Assembly (NCBI RefSeq): GCF_004010195.1
Contig: NC_057718.1
Location: 6,477,457-6,497,456 of the forward strand
Origin: Chiloscyllium plagiosum
Taxonomy: Eukaryota
Length of the DNA stretch: 20,000 nucleotides
Reading direction: 5' to 3'
Numbering within the stretch: position 1 is the stretch's first letter; each line of letters opens with the position of its first letter. The position numbers and the translations under genes are program-made. This document shows, one piece after another, positions 3,129-18,950 of this stretch. The notes under the pieces were generated by a model that was given only the letters and a program-made list of their open reading frames with translations, ran no database searches and had not been told where the DNA came from.

Positions 3129-3557
3129 TAGAACATAGAACGTAGAAGGTAGAACATTACAGCGCAGTACAGGCCCTTTGGCCCTCAATGTTATGCCGAC
3201 CTCTGGAACCAATCTGAAGCCCATCTATCCTACACTATTCCATTTTCATCCCTATGTTTATCCAATGACCTTAAAGTTGGTGAGTCTACTACTGTTACAG
3301 GCCAATGACCTTAAAGTTGGTGAGTCTACTACTGTTACAGGCAGTGTGTTCCACATCCCTACTACTCGGAGTAAAGAAACTACCTCTGACATCTGTCCTA
3401 TATCTATCACCCCTCAATTTAAAGCTATGTTCCCTCATGCTAGCCATCATCATCCAAGGAAAAAGGTTCTCCCTGTCCACCCTATCTAACCCTCTGATTA
3501 TCTTATATGTCTCAATTAAGTCACTTCTCAACCTTCTTATCTCTAACAAAAACAGCT
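3129..3557 (-). mobile_element. CR1 LINE 3' end (ORF2 C-terminus + 3' UTR), 5'-truncated
   Basis: ORF 3295-3549 gives RRLRSDLIETYKIIRGLDRVD...FKLRGDRYRTDVRGSFF, typical of the CR1 ORF2 C-terminus; (TTCTAYG)-like repeat tail at 3129-3155. Confidence 0.9.
3262..3341. repeat. Exact 40-bp tandem duplication
   Basis: CCAATGACCTTAAAGTTGGTGAGTCTACTACTGTTACAGG at 3262-3301 and 3302-3341. Confidence 0.97.
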
Positions 3558-3585: not shown

Positions 3586-3783
3586 GATAAAACTGAAAGA
3601 ACTGCAGGTGCTGTAAATCAGAAACAAAGTTAGAAATTGCTGGAAAAGCTCTGCAGGTCTGGCAACATCGGTGAAGAGAAAGCAGAGTTAAGTGACCCTT
3701 TCTCTGAACTCTGTCTTCTCTACATGGATGCTGCCAGACCTGCTGAGCTTTACCAGCAAGTTCTGCTTTTGTTTGTCTCTGAT
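3586..3783. mobile_element. Fold-back element, Penelope pLTR-like family C, centre largely deleted
   Basis: ATCAGAAACAAA...TTGCTGGAAAAGCTCTGCAGGTCTGGCAACATC...CAGAGTT is the imperfect reverse complement of AACTCTG...GATGCTGCCAGACCTGCTGAGCTTTACCAGCAA...TCTGAT; homologous to 7481-7680. Confidence 0.8.
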
Positions 3784-5112: not shown

Positions 5113-5383
5113 TCATAGATCCCTACAGTTTGGAAGCACACCATTTGGCCCATTGAGTTCACACCGACCCTCCAAAGAGCGTCTCATCCAGACCCACTCG
5201 ATCCCTATAACTCTACCTATTCTATTCAATCCACCATAACCTGTGCATCTCTGGAGGAAACCAGAGCACCCAAAGGAACACACGCAGACATGGGGAGAAT
5301 GTGCAAGCTCCACGCAGATAATCACCCGAGGGTAGGATTGAACCAGGGTCCCTGATTCAGTGAGGCAGCAGTGCTAACCACTG
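5113..5383 (-). mobile_element. HE1-type V-SINE, older copy with internal deletions
   Basis: GGAGGAAACCAGAGCACC...CAGACATGGGGAGAATGTGCAAGCTCCAC...GTGAGGCAGCAGTGCTAACCACTG is the reverse complement of 2410-2560. Confidence 0.88.
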
Positions 5384-6583
5384 ATAGAGCACTGATAAAG
5401 ACCTATAGAACTTTCTGAATCATTTTTACTATATGCATTCATTTGTCTTTATCTGTTGTGTGTGGGCACCATTGAGTCCAAAGTTATTGCTGCATTAGGA
5501 CCTTGGAGCAACATCACAATGATATCATAGAGTTGCACATCACTGTCTATAAATACCACAGTGAGGATGGAGTTAGAGCATGGAATATTCTGGACATTGA
5601 CTGCACACTATCGAAGTCTACATCAGACGCACCACACCATAAATGTGAACACAAAATGAGGTGGATTAGTCCTTACCTGATATAATGATTTAAAGTTGGA
5701 TGACCATGACTAACATTCCCTCAGAGATTATAAGGAAAAGATTAGTCCCACGTCTGACTCCAACAAGCTGTTTCTTTCGTCTCATCAATCCATGTGATAT
5801 TATCACAGTGGCTGGGCTGGGGCAGGCGTTTGGGAAGGAGTTTTGAATGCTTATTGCACTCAATCAAGTCTTAACTCTTTCAGAACTATACACACCTGAT
5901 ACTCTTTATTAATGTGGAAGGTTCTTCATTGGAAGGTGGGGAATGTGGACACTCTGCCTGTCTCTTAATCACCTCAGGCCCCACTAGTGAATTTGCACTA
6001 AGAGGAGATAATTGCTCACTGTCCTGAGTGGAAATCTGATTCAGCATGGTTTCAACTTCCTCTGTCTATCGCTCGATGTCCTCATGAGTGCTCGAGACAA
6101 TCCAATTACTGCCTGTCTGCTTACAATTCCTCTCAGAGATTGCTGACTGGGAATCTGAACCCTCTTCACTTTTAATAACAATGGAAGACATTTCAACCAA
6201 ATCACTATTGTCACATCTTCCTATCACTGTCACACCCGTGTATAATAAATTATTATCAATTTTGGAATTTCGATTTTACATAAAAAAGAAATGCAGATTG
6301 ATTTTGGTTCGCTCTTTGAGGTAGATTGTTTAAAAGAATATATATTGTTTAGACAATAACTTAAATACATCATTTCTAGGAAGGGAAATGACTTCAGTCA
6401 ACTGCATAGAGGGCCCTCTGGTGAAAATGGATAAACTGTTTATACTCTTGAATTTGTGATAAATAATATAAATGAGATGAGGCAATCAGTTTAGCTTTGA
6501 CTGCATAACAGAAGTTTCAAACTCACCATTCAGAGGAATGTGACATTTGTTCAGAAGATAGGACCAAAAGCAATGGCAGTAGA

Positions 6584-6705
6584 CATGATGTGGAGATGCT
6601 GATGTCGGATTGGGAAGGTCAGAAGTCACACAACACCAGGACATAGCCTAACAGGTCTATTTAAAATTATAGGCTTTTGGAACACAGTTCCTTTGACAGG
6701 TGAAG
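6584..6705 (-). mobile_element. Single decayed arm of pLTR-like family B
   Basis: CATGATGTGGAGATG...AGAAGTCACACAACACCAGG...CCTTTGACAGGTGA aligns to 9473-9600; hammerhead core decayed. Confidence 0.75.
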
Positions 6706-7032: not shown

Positions 7033-7730
7033 GACAACACAAAGTTAGGTTGGAGGGTCAACAGTGAGAAGGATGCAAAGATACATCAGTGTGAATTGTT
7101 TTAGAGAACAAACACATGGAAGATGAAATGCAATGTGGGTAAATGGGAAGTTATCCATTTTAGCAGCAAAAACAGGCAGATGTATTGCTATCTGAATGAC
7201 AATAGATTGGGCAAGGGATGGACGGTACAATGAGATTTGGGTGTCCTTGTATGCCAGTCACTGAAGGTAAGCACTGCAGGTACAGCAGGCAGTGAAGAAG
7301 GTCAGTGTTGTTTTGGCCTTCATAGCGAGAGAGTTCGAGTACAGGAGCAGGGATGTCTTGCTGTAATTGTACAGGGTCTTGGTGAGACCGCACTTGGAAC
7401 ATTGTATGCAGTTCAGAAGAATGAGGGGTTTGCCATAGAAACCAATACAATTCTAACAGAAAAAGACTGGGTAATGCAAGAAGAAACAAAAACAGAAATT
7501 ACTGGAAAGTCCCAGCAGGTCTGGCAGCATCTATGGAGAGAAATCAGAGTTAAATTCTTGGGCCCAGTGCCCCTTCCTCAGAATGGAGCCTTCAGTTCTG
7601 AAATGATTACTGGACCGGAAACGTTAACTCTGATTTCTCTGCACCAAGGCTGCCAGACTTGCTGAGCTTTTCCAGCAAATGTCAAAGGGCTGAATGGCCT
7701 ACCCCTATTCCTACTTTCCATGATTCTATG
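7033..7730 (+). mobile_element. Degenerate CR1 ORF2 fragment (7033-7483) and 3' tail (7681-7730), separated by a fold-back element
   Basis: Remnants of WKMKCNVGKWEVIHF, DLGVLVCQSLKV, LYRVLVRPHLEHCMQF then RRMRG (internal deletion); tail AAGGGCTGAATGGCCTACCCCTATTCCT...ATGATTCTATG. Confidence 0.85.
7481..7680. mobile_element. Fold-back element, pLTR-like family C, with two decayed hammerhead motifs
   Basis: Arms ~7497-7553 and ~7624-7680 are imperfect inverted repeats. Minus-strand CTGAGGA-A-GGGGC-ACTG-GGCCC and plus-strand GTT-CTGA...GGACC-GGAAACGTT-AAC lie between them. Confidence 0.82.
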
Positions 7731-8230: not shown

Positions 8231-8450
8231 GGAGGAAGTGGGTACTGCAGATGCTGGAGATTAGAGTCAAGATTAGAGTGGTGCTGTAAAAACACAGCAG
8301 GTCAGGCAGCATCTGAAGAGCAGGAAAATCGATGTTTTGGGCAAAAGCCCTTCATCAGGAATGAAAGGTTTTTGCCCGAAACATCAATTTTCCTGCTCTT
8401 CAGATGCTGCCTGACCTGCTGTGCTTTTCCAGTACCTCTCTAATCTTGAC
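8231..8450. mobile_element. Fold-back element, pLTR-like family A, with target-site duplication
   Basis: 90-bp arms 8266-8355 and 8361-8450 (8 mismatches, 5-nt spacer); flanked by GCGTGTCCAAATCTC (8216-8230) and ACATGCCCAAATCTC (8451-8465). Confidence 0.9.
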
Positions 8451-8465
8451 ACATGCCCAAATCTC

Positions 8466-9445
8466 ATCAATTCTAAGCATTGAAGAATGTCAGCCAGTCC
8501 ACACTATAACAAAGTCTCGTATATCAGCCCACACCACCACCTATATATGTTGGAGAGTCTCTGGAATATGTAAAGTACTTCCCATACCTTAGCAACCATC
8601 TTTATCACAAAGTCAACGGCAATGTCCAACTAGTCAACCACACCAGCTAGGCCTTGAATGTACTCCAGCAGTAACTGTTTGGCTTGACAATAAGGACTAC
8701 CATGAGTCAACAGCAGGCACAATACAAAGGGCAGTTATGGCCATCACACTCTTGTACAGCAGTGAGTACTAGATTATGTAGCAATGACACAGAAAGGTGC
8801 GAGAGAAACTCCATCGGAAATACCTCCACCACATTCTCCAGATTTTATGGGATGGCCATTGAACAAATATGGTCACCTTTCTTGAATGCCAGCATTCAGC
8901 CTAACTTCTCCAAAGTCAGCTTTGATAGACTGAAAAATGTGTCAGGAAAGGTCCCACACAAGATACAAAGGAATATTGATTATTACGCACTCAACTAACC
9001 AAATTTCAGTTAATCTGAACATGATCGTAAGGTCCAGATGCTTGGCTAAACTATGTTATCCGGCATTCAATTATCTGGCATTCGATTAAGCAAATGAAAT
9101 ACTCCCCACCCTTGTCTTTTTGGATAATCGAAGTTCCTCTGTACTGTTTTGCCAATGGCCAGCTGTCCAGAGACAGTCAAAGAAAACTCCTCAAAGATCC
9201 TCTGAAGCTCTCCTTGAGGCCCGGTTGAATGACATAAATGATGGGGAGGGGCTCGTGCGAGACTGGGGAGGGCGATGACCTGTCCAGCAAACTGTGTCAT
9301 GCTTTGAGTGACAATGTGGTAAAAATCAGATAGAGAAACAGCCAAGAAGGAAGGAAAACGATGTCAATGTGAATCCTGCTGCCTTATGGGACTTTTCACT
9401 CGATCGCTGCCAGTCAGGATTTGTTGAGTCACATGAGGGCCCCAG
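8466..9445 (+). mobile_element. Ancient RTE-clade LINE ORF2 3' half, heavily decayed
   Basis: Frame remnants ESLEYVKYFPYL, AVMAITLLYSSE, EKLHRKYLHHILQILW, NGQLSRDSQRKLLKDPLKLSL and LSHMRA occur in RTE ORF2 order, with many stops and frameshifts. Confidence 0.75.
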
Positions 9446-9472
9446 GCAGAAACATCTGACCTGAGTAGGTGG

Positions 9473-9691
9473 CATGATTTGGAGATGACGGTGTTGGACT
9501 GGGGTGTACAAAGTTAAAAATCACACAACACCAGGTTATAGTCCAACAGGTTTAATTGGAAGCACACTAGCTTTCGGAGCGTCGCTCCTTCATCAGGTGA
9601 CTGTCATCACTGAAGGAGCAGCAGTCCGAAAGCTAGTGTGCTTCCAATTAAACCTGTTGGACTATAACCTGGTGTTGTGTGATTTTTAACT
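9473..9691. mobile_element. Fold-back element, pLTR-like family B, with target-site duplication
   Basis: Perfect 67-bp inverted arms 9512-9578 and 9625-9691; flanked by CTGAGTAGGTGGCAT (9461-9475) and CTGAGTACTTGGCAT (9690-9704). Confidence 0.92.
9565..9599 (-). ncRNA. Minimal type-I hammerhead ribozyme motif (Penelope-type)
   Basis: Minus strand reads CAC CUGAUGA A GGAGC GAC GCUCC GAAA GCUA GUG: both core boxes, 5-bp helix II, palindromic AGCU at helix III, CUA triplet and 3-bp helix I. Confidence 0.8.
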
Positions 9692-9792
9692 GAGTACTTG
9701 GCATCCTTAAATCTTCGGAACAGTTTACAATGATATTGGGTCTATTTTACACCTTCCTGATATCACTCCTTTGCCTCTTTTCAAGCCACAAT

Positions 9793-10124
9793 ATCATAGA
9801 ATCTCAACAGTGTGGAAGTTGGTCATTCAGCCCATCAAGTCCACACCAACCCTCTTGAAGAGCATCCCACTCCCAGACTCATGCCCTATTCCTGTAACCC
9901 TGCAATTCCCGTGGCTAATCCATCTAGCCTGCGCATCTCTGAACATTGTGGGTAATTTAACATGGTCAATCCACCTAACCTGTGGGAGGAAACCGGAGCA
10001 CCCGGAGGAAACCCACACAGACACGGGGAGAATGTGCAAACTCCACACAGGTAGTCGCCTGAGCATGGGATCGAACCTAGGGCTCTAGCGCTCTGAGGCA
10101 CCAATGCTAACCACTGAGCCACTG
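9793..10124 (-). mobile_element. HE1-type V-SINE
   Basis: Reverse complement of head, V-domain (GGAGGAAACCGGAGCACCCGGAGGAAACCCAC...GGGGAGAATGTGCAAACTCCACAC) and CR1-like tail (ATTCTATGAT). Confidence 0.9.
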
Positions 10125-10217
10125 AAATAGACACTTCCTTTTTTCCACATCTTTGATCTGTTTACCAACCCCCCCCCTCCAATATTCAAAGCATCATCCT
10201 CTGCTGATTCTGCCAAT

Positions 10218-10863
10218 TTTAGTAAGGCGTTTGATAAGGTTCCCCATGGTAGGCTACTTCAAAAAATACAGAGATATGGCATTGAGGGTGAGTTGGAGGT
10301 TTGGATTAGGAATTGGCTGGCTGGAAGAAGACAGAGGGTAGTAGTTGATGGTAAAGGTTCATCTTGGAGTGCAGTTACTAGCGGTGTTCCGCAAGGATCT
10401 GTTTTGGGACCATTGCTGTTTGTCATTTTTATAAATGACCTGGAAGAGGGGTTAGAAGGTTAGGTGAGCAAGTTTGCGGATGATACGAAAGTCGGAGGAG
10501 TTATTGACAGTGAGGAAGGATGTGGCAGGTTACAGCAGGATATAGAGAAGCTGCAGAGCTGGGCAGAAAGGTGGCAAATGGAATTCAATGTAGCTAAGTG
10601 TGAGGTGATTCACTTTGGGAAGAATAACAAAAAGATGGGGTACTGGGCTAATGGTCGGATACTTGGTAGTGTGGATGAGCAGAGGGATCTTGGTGTCCAT
10701 GTACACAGATCTCTGAAAGTTGCCACCCAGGTAAATAGTGCGGTGAGGAAGGCATATGGCGTACTGGCTTTTATTGGTAGAGGAATTGAGTTCCGGACTC
10801 CTGAGGTCATGATGCAGTTGTATAAGACTCTGGTGCGGCCGCATCTGGAATACTGTGTGCAGT
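10218..10863 (+). mobile_element. Young 5'-truncated CR1 LINE, RT domain, runs into the gap
   Basis: One frame: [14 protein letters not shown]...[15 protein letters not shown]...[31 protein letters not shown]...RPHLEYCVQ; single TAG at 10461-10463, no frameshift. Confidence 0.95.
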
Positions 10864-11153
10864 NNNNNNNNNNNNNNNNNNNNNNNNNNNNNNNNNNNNN
10901 NNNNNNNNNNNNNNNNNNNNNNNNNNNNNNNNNNNNNNNNNNNNNNNNNNNNNNNNNNNNNNNNNNNNNNNNNNNNNNNNNNNNNNNNNNNNNNNNNNNN
11001 NNNNNNNNNNNNNNNNNNNNNNNNNNNNNNNNNNNNNNNNNNNNNNNNNNNNNNNNNNNNNNNNNNNNNNNNNNNNNNNNNNNNNNNNNNNNNNNNNNNN
11101 NNNNNNNNNNNNNNNNNNNNNNNNNNNNNNNNNNNNNNNNNNNNNNNNNNNNN
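10864..11153. other. Assembly gap (290 N)
   Basis: Run of N. Confidence 1.
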
Positions 11154-11313
11154 CAATCTCCCCCCTTCCCTGGCTTTGAACTTGTTGTCGATTTCTTACA
11201 TTTTTAACTTTTTCCAGTTCTGGGGAAAGGCAATCAGCCTGAACTCTGCTTTCCTTTCCATCGATGCTGCCAGGTCTTTTGAGTATTCTAACATTTTCTG
11301 CAGTTAACTTCAG
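11154..11313 (+). mobile_element. Penelope-like 3' end / single pLTR arm related to family C
   Basis: TTCCAGTTCTGGGGAAAGG...AACTCTGCTTTCCTTTCCATCGATGCTGCCAGGTC...GAGTATTCTAACATTTTCTG resembles the right arms of 3586-3783 and 7481-7680; pyrimidine-rich leader. Confidence 0.65.
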
Positions 11314-11531: not shown

Positions 11532-11736
11532 CTTGAGTAGATCACCCAGTCATTCAAGTCTGCTCTGCCATTGCAACAGATCATGGCTGAGGTGACTTGG
11601 TCATCAACTCCACATTCCTGACTAGACTGATAACCTTTCACCCCATGGCTTATAGAGAATCTAAATACCTTAAAAATATTTAAAGATTCTACCTCCATTG
11701 CCTTTGAAAGAACAGAAGTCCAACCCTTGCAGAGAA

Positions 11737-11860
11737 GGTCAACCCTCAGCCTCTGACACTGCAGGGAAAACGGCCCCAATTATTCAGCCTCACCCTGTAG
11801 CTCAAACCCTCCAACCCTGGCAACAACCTTGTAGATTCTTTCTGCACCTTTTCAAGTTTT
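11737..11860 (-). repeat. Inverted local copy of 12107-12229 flanked by a 16-bp direct repeat
   Basis: 118/123 identity to the reverse complement of 12107-12229; CAACCCTTGCAGAGAA at 11721-11736 and 11861-11876. Confidence 0.95.
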
Positions 11861-11925
11861 CAACCCTTGCAGAGAACCAAATTGTCCTTGTCTCTGTCTT
11901 CAGTGGGTCACCCCCCTCTCCCCAC

Positions 11926-12779
11926 TTTTTGTTTATTTGTTAATGGGCTGTCGGCATTGCTGATTGGTCAGCATTTATTGCCCATCCCTATTTGGCCAGA
12001 GGACAGTAAAGAGTCAACCACATTGCTGTGGGTCTGGAGTCACAGGTAGGCCAGACCAGGTAAGGATGGCTAATTCTGCTCTCCCTGCTCAAGGAAAGAT
12101 GTTGTTAAACTTGAAAAGGTGCAGAAAGAATCTACAAGGTTGTTGCCAGGGTTGGAGGGTTTGAGCTATAGGGAGAGGCTGAATAGTAGGGGCCATTTTC
12201 CCTGCAGTGTCAGAGGCTGAGGGTTGACCTTATAGAAGTTTATAAAATCATGAGGGGCATGGTTAGGGTAAATAGACACAGTATTTTCCCTAGGGTAGGG
12301 AAATTAGAGGGCATAAGTTTTAGGTGAGGGGGGGAGATTTAAAAGGGACCTGAGGGGTAACTTTTTCACACAGAGGGTAGTGCGTTTATGGAATGAGCTG
12401 TCAGAGGAAGTGGTGGAGGCTGGTACAATTACAACATTTAAAAGGAAATTGGATGGGTATAGGAATAAGAAGGGTTTAGAGACATATGGCCACATGCTGG
12501 CAAATGGGACTTGATTAATTTAGGATATCTGATCAGAATGGATGAGTTGGACTGAAGGGTCTGTTTCCGTGCTGTACACCTCTATGACTCTACATGGGTT
12601 TTTGCAACAGTTGTCAATGGTCACCTGGTTGTTATTAGTTCTGTTTTAATTTACATTTTTTAAAAATTGAATCCAAATTTCACCATCTACTACAGTGGGA
12701 TTTGAACCCCTGACCCCAGTGTATTAGCACGGGATTCTGAATTACTCTATGGCAATGTTGCCACTACACCACCACCTCC
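11926..12779 (-). mobile_element. tRNA-derived SINE (same family as 2149-2797), pieces 11926-12070 and 12594-12779
   Basis: Aligns with 2149-2406; reverse-strand B box (GGGATTTGAACCCC) at ~12697-12710. Confidence 0.85.
12071..12592 (+). mobile_element. CR1 LINE 3' end (ORF2 C-terminus + 3' UTR)
   Basis: RKDVVKLEKVQKESTRLLPGLEGLSYRERLN...QRLRVDLIEVYKIMRGM...FFTQRVVRLWNELSEEVV; tail CTCTATGACTCTA. Confidence 0.93.
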
Positions 12780-14393: not shown

Positions 14394-14730
14394 AGTCAGA
14401 AGTCACATGACACCAGGTTACTGTCCAACAGATTTATTTAAAATCACAAGCTTGCAGAGTGCTGTTCCTTCATCAGATGAAGCATACATGATGAAGGAGC
14501 AGCACTCCGATAGCTTGTGATTTCAAATAAACCTGTTGAACTATCACTTGGAGAAAGTGAGGACTGCAGATGTTGGAGATCAGAGCTGAAAAATGTGTTG
14601 CTGGAAAAGCGCAGCAGGTCAGGCAGCATCCGAGGAGCAGGAGAATCAGGCATAAGCCCTTCTTCAGGAAGGAGTCATGTGACTTCTGACTTTGTCGACC
14701 CTGGTCCAACACCAGCACCTCCACATCATG
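14394..14730. mobile_element. Fold-back element family B with a nested family A arm
   Basis: AGTCAGAAGTCACATGAC...CCTTCATCAG is inverted as TGATGAAGGAG...CTATCACTTG and, after the insert, GTCATGTGACTTCTGACT; ends CTCCACATCATG. Confidence 0.85.
14550..14670 (-). mobile_element. Single pLTR-like family A arm
   Basis: GGAGAAAGTGAGGACTGCAGATG...CAGCAGGTCAGGCAGCATC...AAGCCCTTCTTCAGGAA aligns to 8231-8361. Confidence 0.87.
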
Positions 14731-14919
14731 GCCACGAGGGAGATATGTAAGTTTGATTTTGGCACCACTTCTTGCAGAACACCATGGCAGAAGGATACTT
14801 TCAAACCTTTCTGGTTCCCCCCACCACCTCTGTCTTCCAAACTTACCAATCCTTCCCTGGTCACTGTTATATGATATCTCCACACAATCCAGCCCTTTTT
14901 TCTCCGTTGAAGCTGTCTT

Positions 14920-17469: not shown

Positions 17470-17770
17470 GTCTAAATCAAGGGGGCAAGCATTTACGATG
17501 AGAGGAGGAAAGCTCAGAGGAGATCTGAGGGGCAAAGGTTTTACACAGAGAGTGGTAGGAGTCTGAAACACGCTGCCAGGGGTGGTGGTGGAGGCAGGTA
17601 TGTTAGGGATATTTTAGGGGTTTTTAAATAAGCACATGAATACGCAAGGGACAGAGGGATATGGACCATGAACAGGCAGAAGAAATTGGTTTCATTTGGC
17701 GTCATGTTCAGCACAGCATTGTGGGCCGAAGGGCCTATTCCTGTGCTGTACTGTTCTCTATTCTATGTTC
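17470..17770 (+). mobile_element. CR1 3' end fragment
   Basis: RGDLRGKGFTQRVVGV*NTLPGVVVEAG; tail GGGCCGAAGGGCCTATTCCTGTGCTGTACTGTTCTCTATTCTATG. Confidence 0.88.
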
Positions 17771-17774
17771 AATG

Positions 17775-17870
17775 TAACAGCACTGCGGCCACTGCAGTAT
17801 TTTATGAGTGAATGTGCACAGAGCACTTTTCTCCCAAGAAAGGCACTAGATAAATGCAAGTCGTTGTTTC
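17775..17870 (+). mobile_element. DeuSINE/L2-type 3' tail remnant
   Basis: Ends GAAAGGCACTAGATAAATGCAAGTC, resembling the recalled GAAAGGCGCTATATAAATGCAAG tail of AmnSINE1/SacSINE1-type elements. Confidence 0.55.
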
Positions 17871-18227
17871 TTATGCATTGGGAACATGCTGTTCTCAATA
17901 ACCTTGTTTCTCCCCAGTTAATCTTGAAATGTCATCACGTAAGCTACAGTCTTGAGGAGGAGATTCCTTCTCCCTGTTTGGTGCGGCTAAATCATAAACA
18001 GGTTCAGAAGGAAGATTTTCACAACTCAGATGCGCTGAGTAATGTTTTTATTCTTGCGATTAGACTCCAACTCGTTCTTTTCCAGAATTCTCCAATCTCC
18101 CTCAAACTCTGATTCTCCAGCATTTCCAGGGCTCGTAAATTTTGTGTTTGGCATTGATTCCTAGATTGACAATCACATTACCGTTTCAGTATTTGGACAG
18201 ACAATATAACTTGAAATTCCTGTCCTA

Positions 18228-18461
18228 AGGGAGTGACTTAATGTCAAAGGCATCAGTTTTCAGATGAGACATTAAATTAATCTTTGACTGGCTCTATTAA
18301 ATGTTTGGAACCATGTGGCATTCCTAACTGAAGAACAGGAAATTATCCCAGTATCTTGGGTAATATTCCTATCACAACCAATCTCACCGAAACCTCACTC
18401 ACTGATCATACATAGGTGCTATTTTCTGAGAGATTTCTTGGTGATGTGTGGCCCTTACATT
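18228..18461 (+). mobile_element. Ancient Deu-domain SINE (SacSINE1/AmnSINE1-related)
   Basis: TTTCAGATGAGACATTAAA...ATGTGGCA...GAAGAACAGGAAATTATCCCAGTATCTTGGGTAATATTCCTATCACAACCAA follows the recalled Deu-domain order. Confidence 0.65.
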
Positions 18462-18950
18462 TGAACATAGAACAGTTTGGCATTGGAATAGGCTCCTCAG
18501 CCTACAATGTCATGACAAACATGATGCCAAATTAAACTAATCCCTTCTGCCTGCCCTTGGTCCATATCCCTCCATTCCTTGCATATTCACGTGCTTACCT
18601 AAAAGTCCCTTAAAAGCCCCTGACATATCTGCCTCCACCACCCCAGCAGTGTGTTCTAAACTCCTATTGCTCCCTGTGTAAAAGACATGGCCCTCACATC
18701 TCCTTTGAAATTTTACCCGCTCGCCTTAAATGCATGCACATTATTTTTCAACATTTCAAATCTGGGAAAAAAAATTATGAGAGGCATTGATAGAGTTGAT
18801 GTGCACAGAGCACTCTATCAATGCCTCTCATAATTTTATAGACTTATATCAAGTCTCCCCTTCTCCACTCCAAAGAAAGCAACCCAAGTTTTTCTAGCCT
18901 CTCCTTATAGCTCATACTCTTTCATTCAGGCAGCATCCTGGGAAACCTGT
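18462..18950 (-). mobile_element. CR1 3' end fragment (same subfamily as 17470-17770, opposite strand)
   Basis: Reverse of LSYKERLEKLGLLSL...GDLI*VYKIMRGIDR; 3' UTR mirrors 17640-17770. Confidence 0.88.
18771..18837. repeat. Perfect 26-bp inverted repeat with a 15-nt loop
   Basis: AAAATTATGAGAGGCATTGATAGAGT (18771-18796) / ACTCTATCAATGCCTCTCATAATTTT (18812-18837). Confidence 0.97.

Follow-up and report, generated by a model that had tools for sequence, protein, structure and literature searches.

The minus-strand motif at 9565–9599 of the 20,000-nt window (the whole stretch of DNA analysed) is a real minimal hammerhead motif of the type found in Penelope elements (PLEs), its ribozyme activity being a prediction from the letters. 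The motif is very probably the standard minimal hammerhead of a PLE pseudo-LTR, and the locus around it a pair of 5′-truncated PLE 3′ modules inserted head to head. Both the motif and the shape of the insertion are of a kind already described for PLEs, and the single locus is one of very many copies.

The hammerhead core and a relative with an endonuclease

Read from 9599 to 9565 on the minus strand, the letters form a complete minimal type-I hammerhead according to a structural descriptor and a base-by-base map:

9596–9590, minus strand: C3 (9596), followed by U4, G5, A6, U7, G8 and A9 (9590)
9589, minus strand: extra A, unpaired between positions 9 and 10.1
9588–9584 and 9580–9576, minus strand: helix II, GGAGC/GCUCC, five Watson–Crick pairs with the loop GAC
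9575, minus strand: G12, followed by A13 and A14
9572–9569, minus strand: A15.1 (9572), G, C and U16.1 (9569), the palindrome AGCU
9568, minus strand: A17, with the predicted cut between 9568 and 9567
Ends of the core, minus strand: helix I, CAC/GUG, 3 bp

Both hammerhead boxes, CUGANGA and GAAA...UH, are present together with helices I and II, and the G–C pair 9588–9576 is the G10.1–C11.1 pair of the core. This is the sole descriptor match on both strands of the window, and in dinucleotide shuffles of the window (n = 1000) a loose descriptor gave 0.039 matches per shuffle and a strict one (helix II of at least 5 bp, 2-nt helix III loop), which had been fitted to the motif itself, 0.001. The 35-mer alone folds into helices I and II (z −1.84; probabilities 0.85 and 0.99), and an AGCU:AGCU duplex at the helix III position was computed at −2.5 kcal/mol. 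A search with Rfam at E ≤ 5 gave 24 matches in the window, none of them to a hammerhead model, the best being microRNA-precursor models on other palindromes, all under their gathering scores; because of this, the identification as a hammerhead is based on the descriptor together with published features. The copy studied here belongs to a subfamily with two additional bases at 9563–9564, following the cut-site GUG, which is why helix I has only 3 bp; copies lacking these bases, for which a 4-bp helix I is possible, make up ~6% of the DNA depth and 21% of the RNA reads.

As described in PMC4209133, PLE minimal hammerheads have an extra nucleotide between 9 and 10.1, a G10.1–C11.1 pair and a palindromic 15.2–16.2, and they occur as families with variants. 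The metazoan motifs of that study resemble the present one in being of type I with helix III unclosed, in the extra nucleotide after A9, in G10.1–C11.1, in the palindromic 15.2–16.2, in the short helix I, and in occurring as thousands of dispersed single motifs and as opposite-strand pairs. Helices II and I are 5 and 3 bp long here, against 7–8 and 4–5 bp in Schistosoma (PMC4209133), and, unlike the motifs described there, the present one has its opposite-strand partner only 10 nt away and truncated within the core. Cartilaginous fish are not named in the abstract, results or discussion of PMC4209133. The first-pass annotation had recognized an intact minus-strand core with the letters given above, and the base map and the descriptor bear it out; the assignment to type I with an extra A after A9, the palindromic AGCU at 9572–9569 in place of a closed helix III and the predicted cut after CUA (9568|9567) likewise agree with the base map and, for the type, with the features in PMC4209133. 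The connection with Penelope elements that it had drawn is supported by the same features, by the anatomy of the insertion and by a relative, L002.

This relative was found by scanning metagenome contigs for the exact pattern of the core, which gave two matches, L001 and L002, representing one element (99.6% identity over 677 nt). The core of L002 matches the present one but for a different loop II and a helix I of 5 bp, and it follows, at a distance of 750 nt, an ORF on the same strand. In this ORF, two cysteines stand between GIY- and YIG-like motifs, and its CX2-5CxxC linker is that of Neptune/Nematis-type elements and is lacking in Poseidon. In the Atlas, the ORF adjoins GIY-YIG clusters at 0.97, the family being carried by 23–34% of cluster members, and PHROGs gave a GIY-YIG match (E 1e-4), whereas Pfam gave zero matches and a PDB search two unrelated partial matches only. 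L001 holds an inverted reverse-transcriptase fragment, and the element is probably an animal PLE. The segments 99–449 of L001 and 48–581 of L002 are rearranged, with an inverted reverse-transcriptase piece next to the endonuclease plus the same core. Outside the core, the likeness between L002 and the present copy is weak, at a level reached by 191 of 5000 shuffles; L002 ties the hammerhead core to PLEs and is not evidence of being the parent of this copy.

Anatomy of the insertion and its repeat family

The hammerhead sits in the left arm of a head-to-head insertion of ~218 bp (9474–9691), with the following parts:

9461–9475, plus strand: left copy of the target-site duplication (TSD), its last 2–3 bases also matching the end of the tail
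9474–9511, minus strand: PLE tail, an AC-rich extension of 37–40 nt, on the left arm only
9512–9535, minus strand: GU/U-rich stretch downstream of the candidate poly(A) sites
9536–9539, minus strand: candidate poly(A) addition sites of the family, 29–32 nt 3′ of the predicted cut
9551–9556, minus strand: poly(A) signal AUUAAA, read from the sequence, 11 nt after the predicted cut
9601–9610, no strand: junction spacer of 10 nt, resembling short pieces of the core and differing from the upstream sequence of the family
9611–9691, plus strand: second arm, inverted, 5′-truncated and tail-less, beginning within CUGAUGA and with two helix II mismatches
9690–9704, plus strand: right copy of the TSD, its first 2 bases also matching the end of the arm

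The two TSD copies are identical at 13 of 15 positions, a score attained by none of 400 random right flanks. Four of the 81 positions of the right arm, each within loop II or helix II, deviate from 9592–9512; because this arm begins within CUGAUGA, it is not a ribozyme. Over 67 nt the two arms are identical; the insertion appears to be young and was probably dead on arrival, both arms having been cut down to their last 80–127 nt, so that neither ORF nor promoter is left. An inverted, 5′-truncated head-to-head copy, a one-sided tail of 30–40 bp and a TSD, all present at the locus, are shared with the insertion units of endonuclease-positive PLEs (PMC3846280, PMC8557442); these differ from the present copy in that here both arms are so strongly reduced, and the TSD measures 10–15 bp against 8–10 bp in Adineta (PMC3846280). 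A candidate insertion shared between organisms A and B was rejected, the single contigs spanning the left junction by 25–28 element bases, below the 31-base rule.

Four sequencing runs were aligned to 9330–9612 (flank plus left arm), with reads at least 85% alike required. In the two DNA runs, 82,404 of 21,185,600 and 80,712 of 25,386,572 contigs matched the arm, mostly 90–95% alike, and the DNA depth, which is not a copy number, corresponded to a single copy on the flank and climbed to millions along the arm; the left-arm sequence is a very common repeat. Contigs of the family end at 9473/9474 (838 + 832 in run X2 and 797 + 874 in run X11) and at a second end, 9510/9513, the two ends being 37–40 nt apart in both runs and located 94–95 and 55–58 nt beyond the cut site, respectively. 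The second, tail-less end coincides with the outer edge of the GU/U-rich stretch (9510–9513; loose ends at 9510 and 9513), and the far outer end of the 9474–9511 tail would be the distal start of reverse transcription. The tail is missing on the right arm, and the siblings at 6579 and 14735 carry the extension (~38 nt), which reaches 9474 in the present copy. In both DNA runs, a few contigs join the tailed end (9473–9476) to the tail-less end (9510–9511) on opposite strands, in a tail-to-tail order opposite to the usual arrangement.

Joints at which the strand is switched lead from 9595–9600 to varied points at 9542–9565 (best 15 of the 69 joints), so that the palindrome centre varies between copies. 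Family reads depart from the sequence of the present copy past 9600–9604, and family reads and contigs extend upstream of the hammerhead into common sequence. The loop II variants are GUC (50–58% of the DNA depth), AGC (~30%) and GAC, with GGA in L002, which was itself found by the core pattern. Among the core variants listed, from reads at least 85% alike, only CpG decay at G12 was seen, plus a variant at A17 in RNA; G12 has been lost in this way in 8–12% of the family DNA depth.

The window also contains older relatives of the insertion:

14394–14735, no strand: older palindrome, a sibling from this family, with decayed cores
About 14552–14672: end of a second-family PLE nested in the right arm of 14394–14735, one PLE end inside another
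6579–6705, minus strand: older sibling consisting of one arm with a tail, its core decayed

Every same-family copy in the window ends near the hammerhead. Both core boxes are retained in one of eight arms, the left arm studied here (two families scored, third-family arms excluded), and a TSD was found for two of the four palindromes tested, the two older ones being without it. A second PLE-like family is represented by a head-to-head palindrome at 8231–8453, centred on a hammerhead-like core with helix II GGGC/GCCC; its tail is on the left arm only, its TSD matches at 11 of 12 positions, and its core has G12 mutated in the left arm and the first box truncated in the right arm. A third related family is present at 3600–3774, 7480–7678 and 11220–11290, as palindromes or single arms whose hammerhead-like centres have decayed.

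Among the other repeats, a reverse-transcriptase fragment (10131–10863; Pfam RVT_1), which we take from its motifs to be LINE-type, reaches a 290-base assembly gap (10864–11153); it holds the only two RVT_1 matches among the 10 of 43 window ORFs scanned, among which no PLE ORF was found. A SINE-like repeat containing A- and B-box-like motifs occurs three times (2418–2562, 5277–5384 and 9980–10124), and the window further holds a perfect 40-bp tandem duplication (3262–3341) that may be genuine or an assembly slip, inverted repeats of LINE-like sequence at 11735–12231 (125 nt, 96%) and 17584–18642 (180 nt, 78%), and a perfect 26-nt hairpin of LINE-like sequence (18771–18837).

Origin of the two arms and fate of the ribozyme

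In the proposed mechanism of insertion, a GIY-YIG endonuclease would cut both target strands 10–15 bp apart, and reverse transcription would begin within uncut read-through RNA, 94–95 and 55–58 nt beyond the cut site, the two start sites yielding an arm with a tail and an arm lacking it; a start at two internal sites has been shown in vitro for the anole element (PMC11167929). The two cDNAs would halt close to the 5′ border of the hammerhead, and the 10-nt spacer would link them. In an active element, the ribozyme would cut slowly, as a dimer through AGCU:AGCU and perhaps with the help of a protein (PMC11167929). Poseidon of Anolis carolinensis (PMC11167929) resembles the present family in having two ends separated by the tail, in the copying of the hammerhead uncut and in a far end ~90 nt beyond the hammerhead cut. 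For this anole PLE, reverse transcription starts 85–92 nt past the cut (by subtraction from figures in PMC11167929) on uncut RNA as the template, and insertion in vitro does not require the hammerhead to cleave (PMC11167929). The Poseidon ORF begins at stem II, whereas the sole ATG of the present core reaches a stop after 8 codons.

The mirror arm could have arisen either from two RNA templates primed at the two cut strands or by fold-back copying of one cDNA. The first origin is modestly favoured because the arms differ in their loop II allele, the left having GAC (one change from GUC) and the right AGC; it agrees also with the anole protein, which cuts and extends both strands (PMC11167929), and with the two arms finishing at two different family ends, both of which speak against copying from one cDNA. 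Fold-back copying is nevertheless a serious contender, at somewhat less than an even chance: the arms agree fully along a stretch of 67 nt, self-priming has been proposed for head-to-head palindromes (PMC3846280), and the right-arm block reads as a run of AGC units, for which one local slippage could suffice.

It is unlikely, though well worth weighing, that the template was a short non-autonomous master, a retrozyme- or SINE-like PLE derivative, for which the same insertion chemistry is possible. The short module is hugely abundant (the 82,404 and 80,712 contigs above), all copies in the window end near the hammerhead, and non-LTR retrozymes, which like the present copy are non-coding PLE derivatives with a type-I hammerhead, have been reported in one chondrichthyan (bioRxiv 10.64898/2026.07.22.740005). 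According to the same preprint, however, retrozymes need tandem units, arranged head to tail with at least two intact motifs, whereas the present insertion has no tandem units; with one intact core in the window and inverted, head-to-head arms, the tandem-retrozyme reading was rejected. The sequence shared upstream of the hammerhead moreover means that not all of the RNA begins at the motif.

The first-pass annotation had further supposed that, in a read-through transcript, the inverted arm upstream pairs with part of a working ribozyme and thereby acts as a built-in off switch. The pairing holds in computed folds, with the difference that the whole motif, rather than a part, is buried. Without the right arm, helix II has a probability of 0.82–0.99 and helix I, in longer contexts, of 0.03–0.15; adding 15 nt of the right arm lowers the probability of helices I and II to 0.000, and the cost of the hammerhead fold is 10.5 kcal/mol with these 15 nt and ~40 kcal/mol with the full arm. 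This burial, and a core that is intact here whereas seven of the eight window arms have lost theirs, would fit a switch, yet there is no apparent on state, because helix III cannot close in a monomer and a second intact sense copy is absent from the window. Single minimal hammerheads were not cleaved in vitro, cleavage being expected only as a dimer, and weakly (PMC4209133). The inverted arm is the usual shape of a PLE insertion, and the junction points differ among copies; the copy is young, as the 67 identical nucleotides indicate, so that its intactness needs no selection, and even in the family the decay of G12 affects only the small fraction of depth given above. We therefore regard a switch as very improbable.

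Transcript evidence came from a poly(A) single-cell RNA run of one sample, of which about 2/100 was examined. The family was matched by 2750 of 12,955,460 reads, only 68 of them at an identity of at least 99%, and within this shallow portion the left flank had no RNA read and 9610–9612 one, which likewise argues against a switch working in read-through transcripts. In a sister RNA run (X22), 0 of 8,328,510 reads matched, which is no test of expression. RNA depth was flat over the cut site, a weak test of cleavage, and no piled-up RNA starts or ends were found, the cut site included, although a 3′ product of only 30 nt would probably not have been retained. When two monomers were freely co-folded, in a program that cannot score the active dimer, the dimeric hammerhead did not form and the helix II strands paired between the molecules. 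It is most likely that the hammerhead is silent at this locus, because a partner copy is lacking and transcripts crossing both arms would form a hairpin of ~80 bp; the hairpin seems to be a side effect of insertion rather than a switch.

Finally, the idea of a MITE or fold-back DNA transposon that carries the hammerhead as a passenger, suggested by a near-perfect inverted repeat of ~190 bp plus a TSD, has next to no probability. The two alternative family ends, together with junctions that vary, largely refute it, and it is opposed also by the unequal arms with their one-sided tail, the differing centres, the single-arm copy at 6579–6705 and the same layout around hammerhead-like cores in three different families.

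Probable polyadenylation beside the hammerhead

AUUAAA and AAUAAA are the two main poly(A) signals. The signal of the present copy (9551–9556) is turned into AAUAAA by a common variant at 9555, found in 33–35% of the DNA depth, and L002 has AAUAAA 18 nt past its predicted cut. Among the 2750 RNA reads, poly-T loose ends occur at 9536 (537 reads) and 9539 (433 reads), and the first-mate RNA depth on the plus strand rises from ~430 to ~1500 at 9536/9539; the poly-T ends and the rise in depth together point to minus-strand, hammerhead-sense RNA with a tail 12–15 nt past the hexamer. This evidence comes from the best 18 of 545 loose-end entries, and genomic A-runs are possible in other copies; in the present copy, an A-run downstream of 9536–9539 is absent. 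The GU/U-rich stretch at 9512–9535 may serve as a downstream poly(A) element, and the family poly(A) sites precede both ends of reverse transcription. We consider it likely that these sites are genuine.

RNA reads also span the cut site uncut (depth 1581, 1455 and 1523), represent several alleles including dead cores, and run on into the shared upstream sequence. The poly(A) reads derive from several copies, mostly others than the present one, to which they are not demonstrably assigned, and host read-through RNA may use the signal incidentally. A search mainly of the open literature brought up no description of poly(A) sites next to PLE hammerheads; an element of Chlamys, from a clade mostly without the motif, is reported to have poly(A)-tailed transcripts (PMC8557442). 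The hammerhead in the 3′ UTR of mammalian Clec2 (PMC6765202) offers a parallel, its cut lying upstream of the polyadenylation signal so that cleavage would remove the tail, but that hammerhead is discontinuous, active and part of a host gene, whereas the present one is a transposon module with a predicted cut.

We can imagine, as a rather improbable extension, that the PLE end module sorts its own RNA: polyadenylated RNA would serve as mRNA only, the hammerhead would strip the tail, and uncut read-through RNA would be the template, two of which would be primed from the cut strands.

The locus alone matters little, its motif being common and its insertion shape already described. PMC8557442 describes the function of PLE hammerheads as unclear. 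If a poly(A) site is in use between the cut and the priming sites, this would point to mRNA turnover or template choice as a function, and the sorting of RNA by the end module, if true, would provide the PLE hammerhead, so far unexplained, with a role that can be tested.
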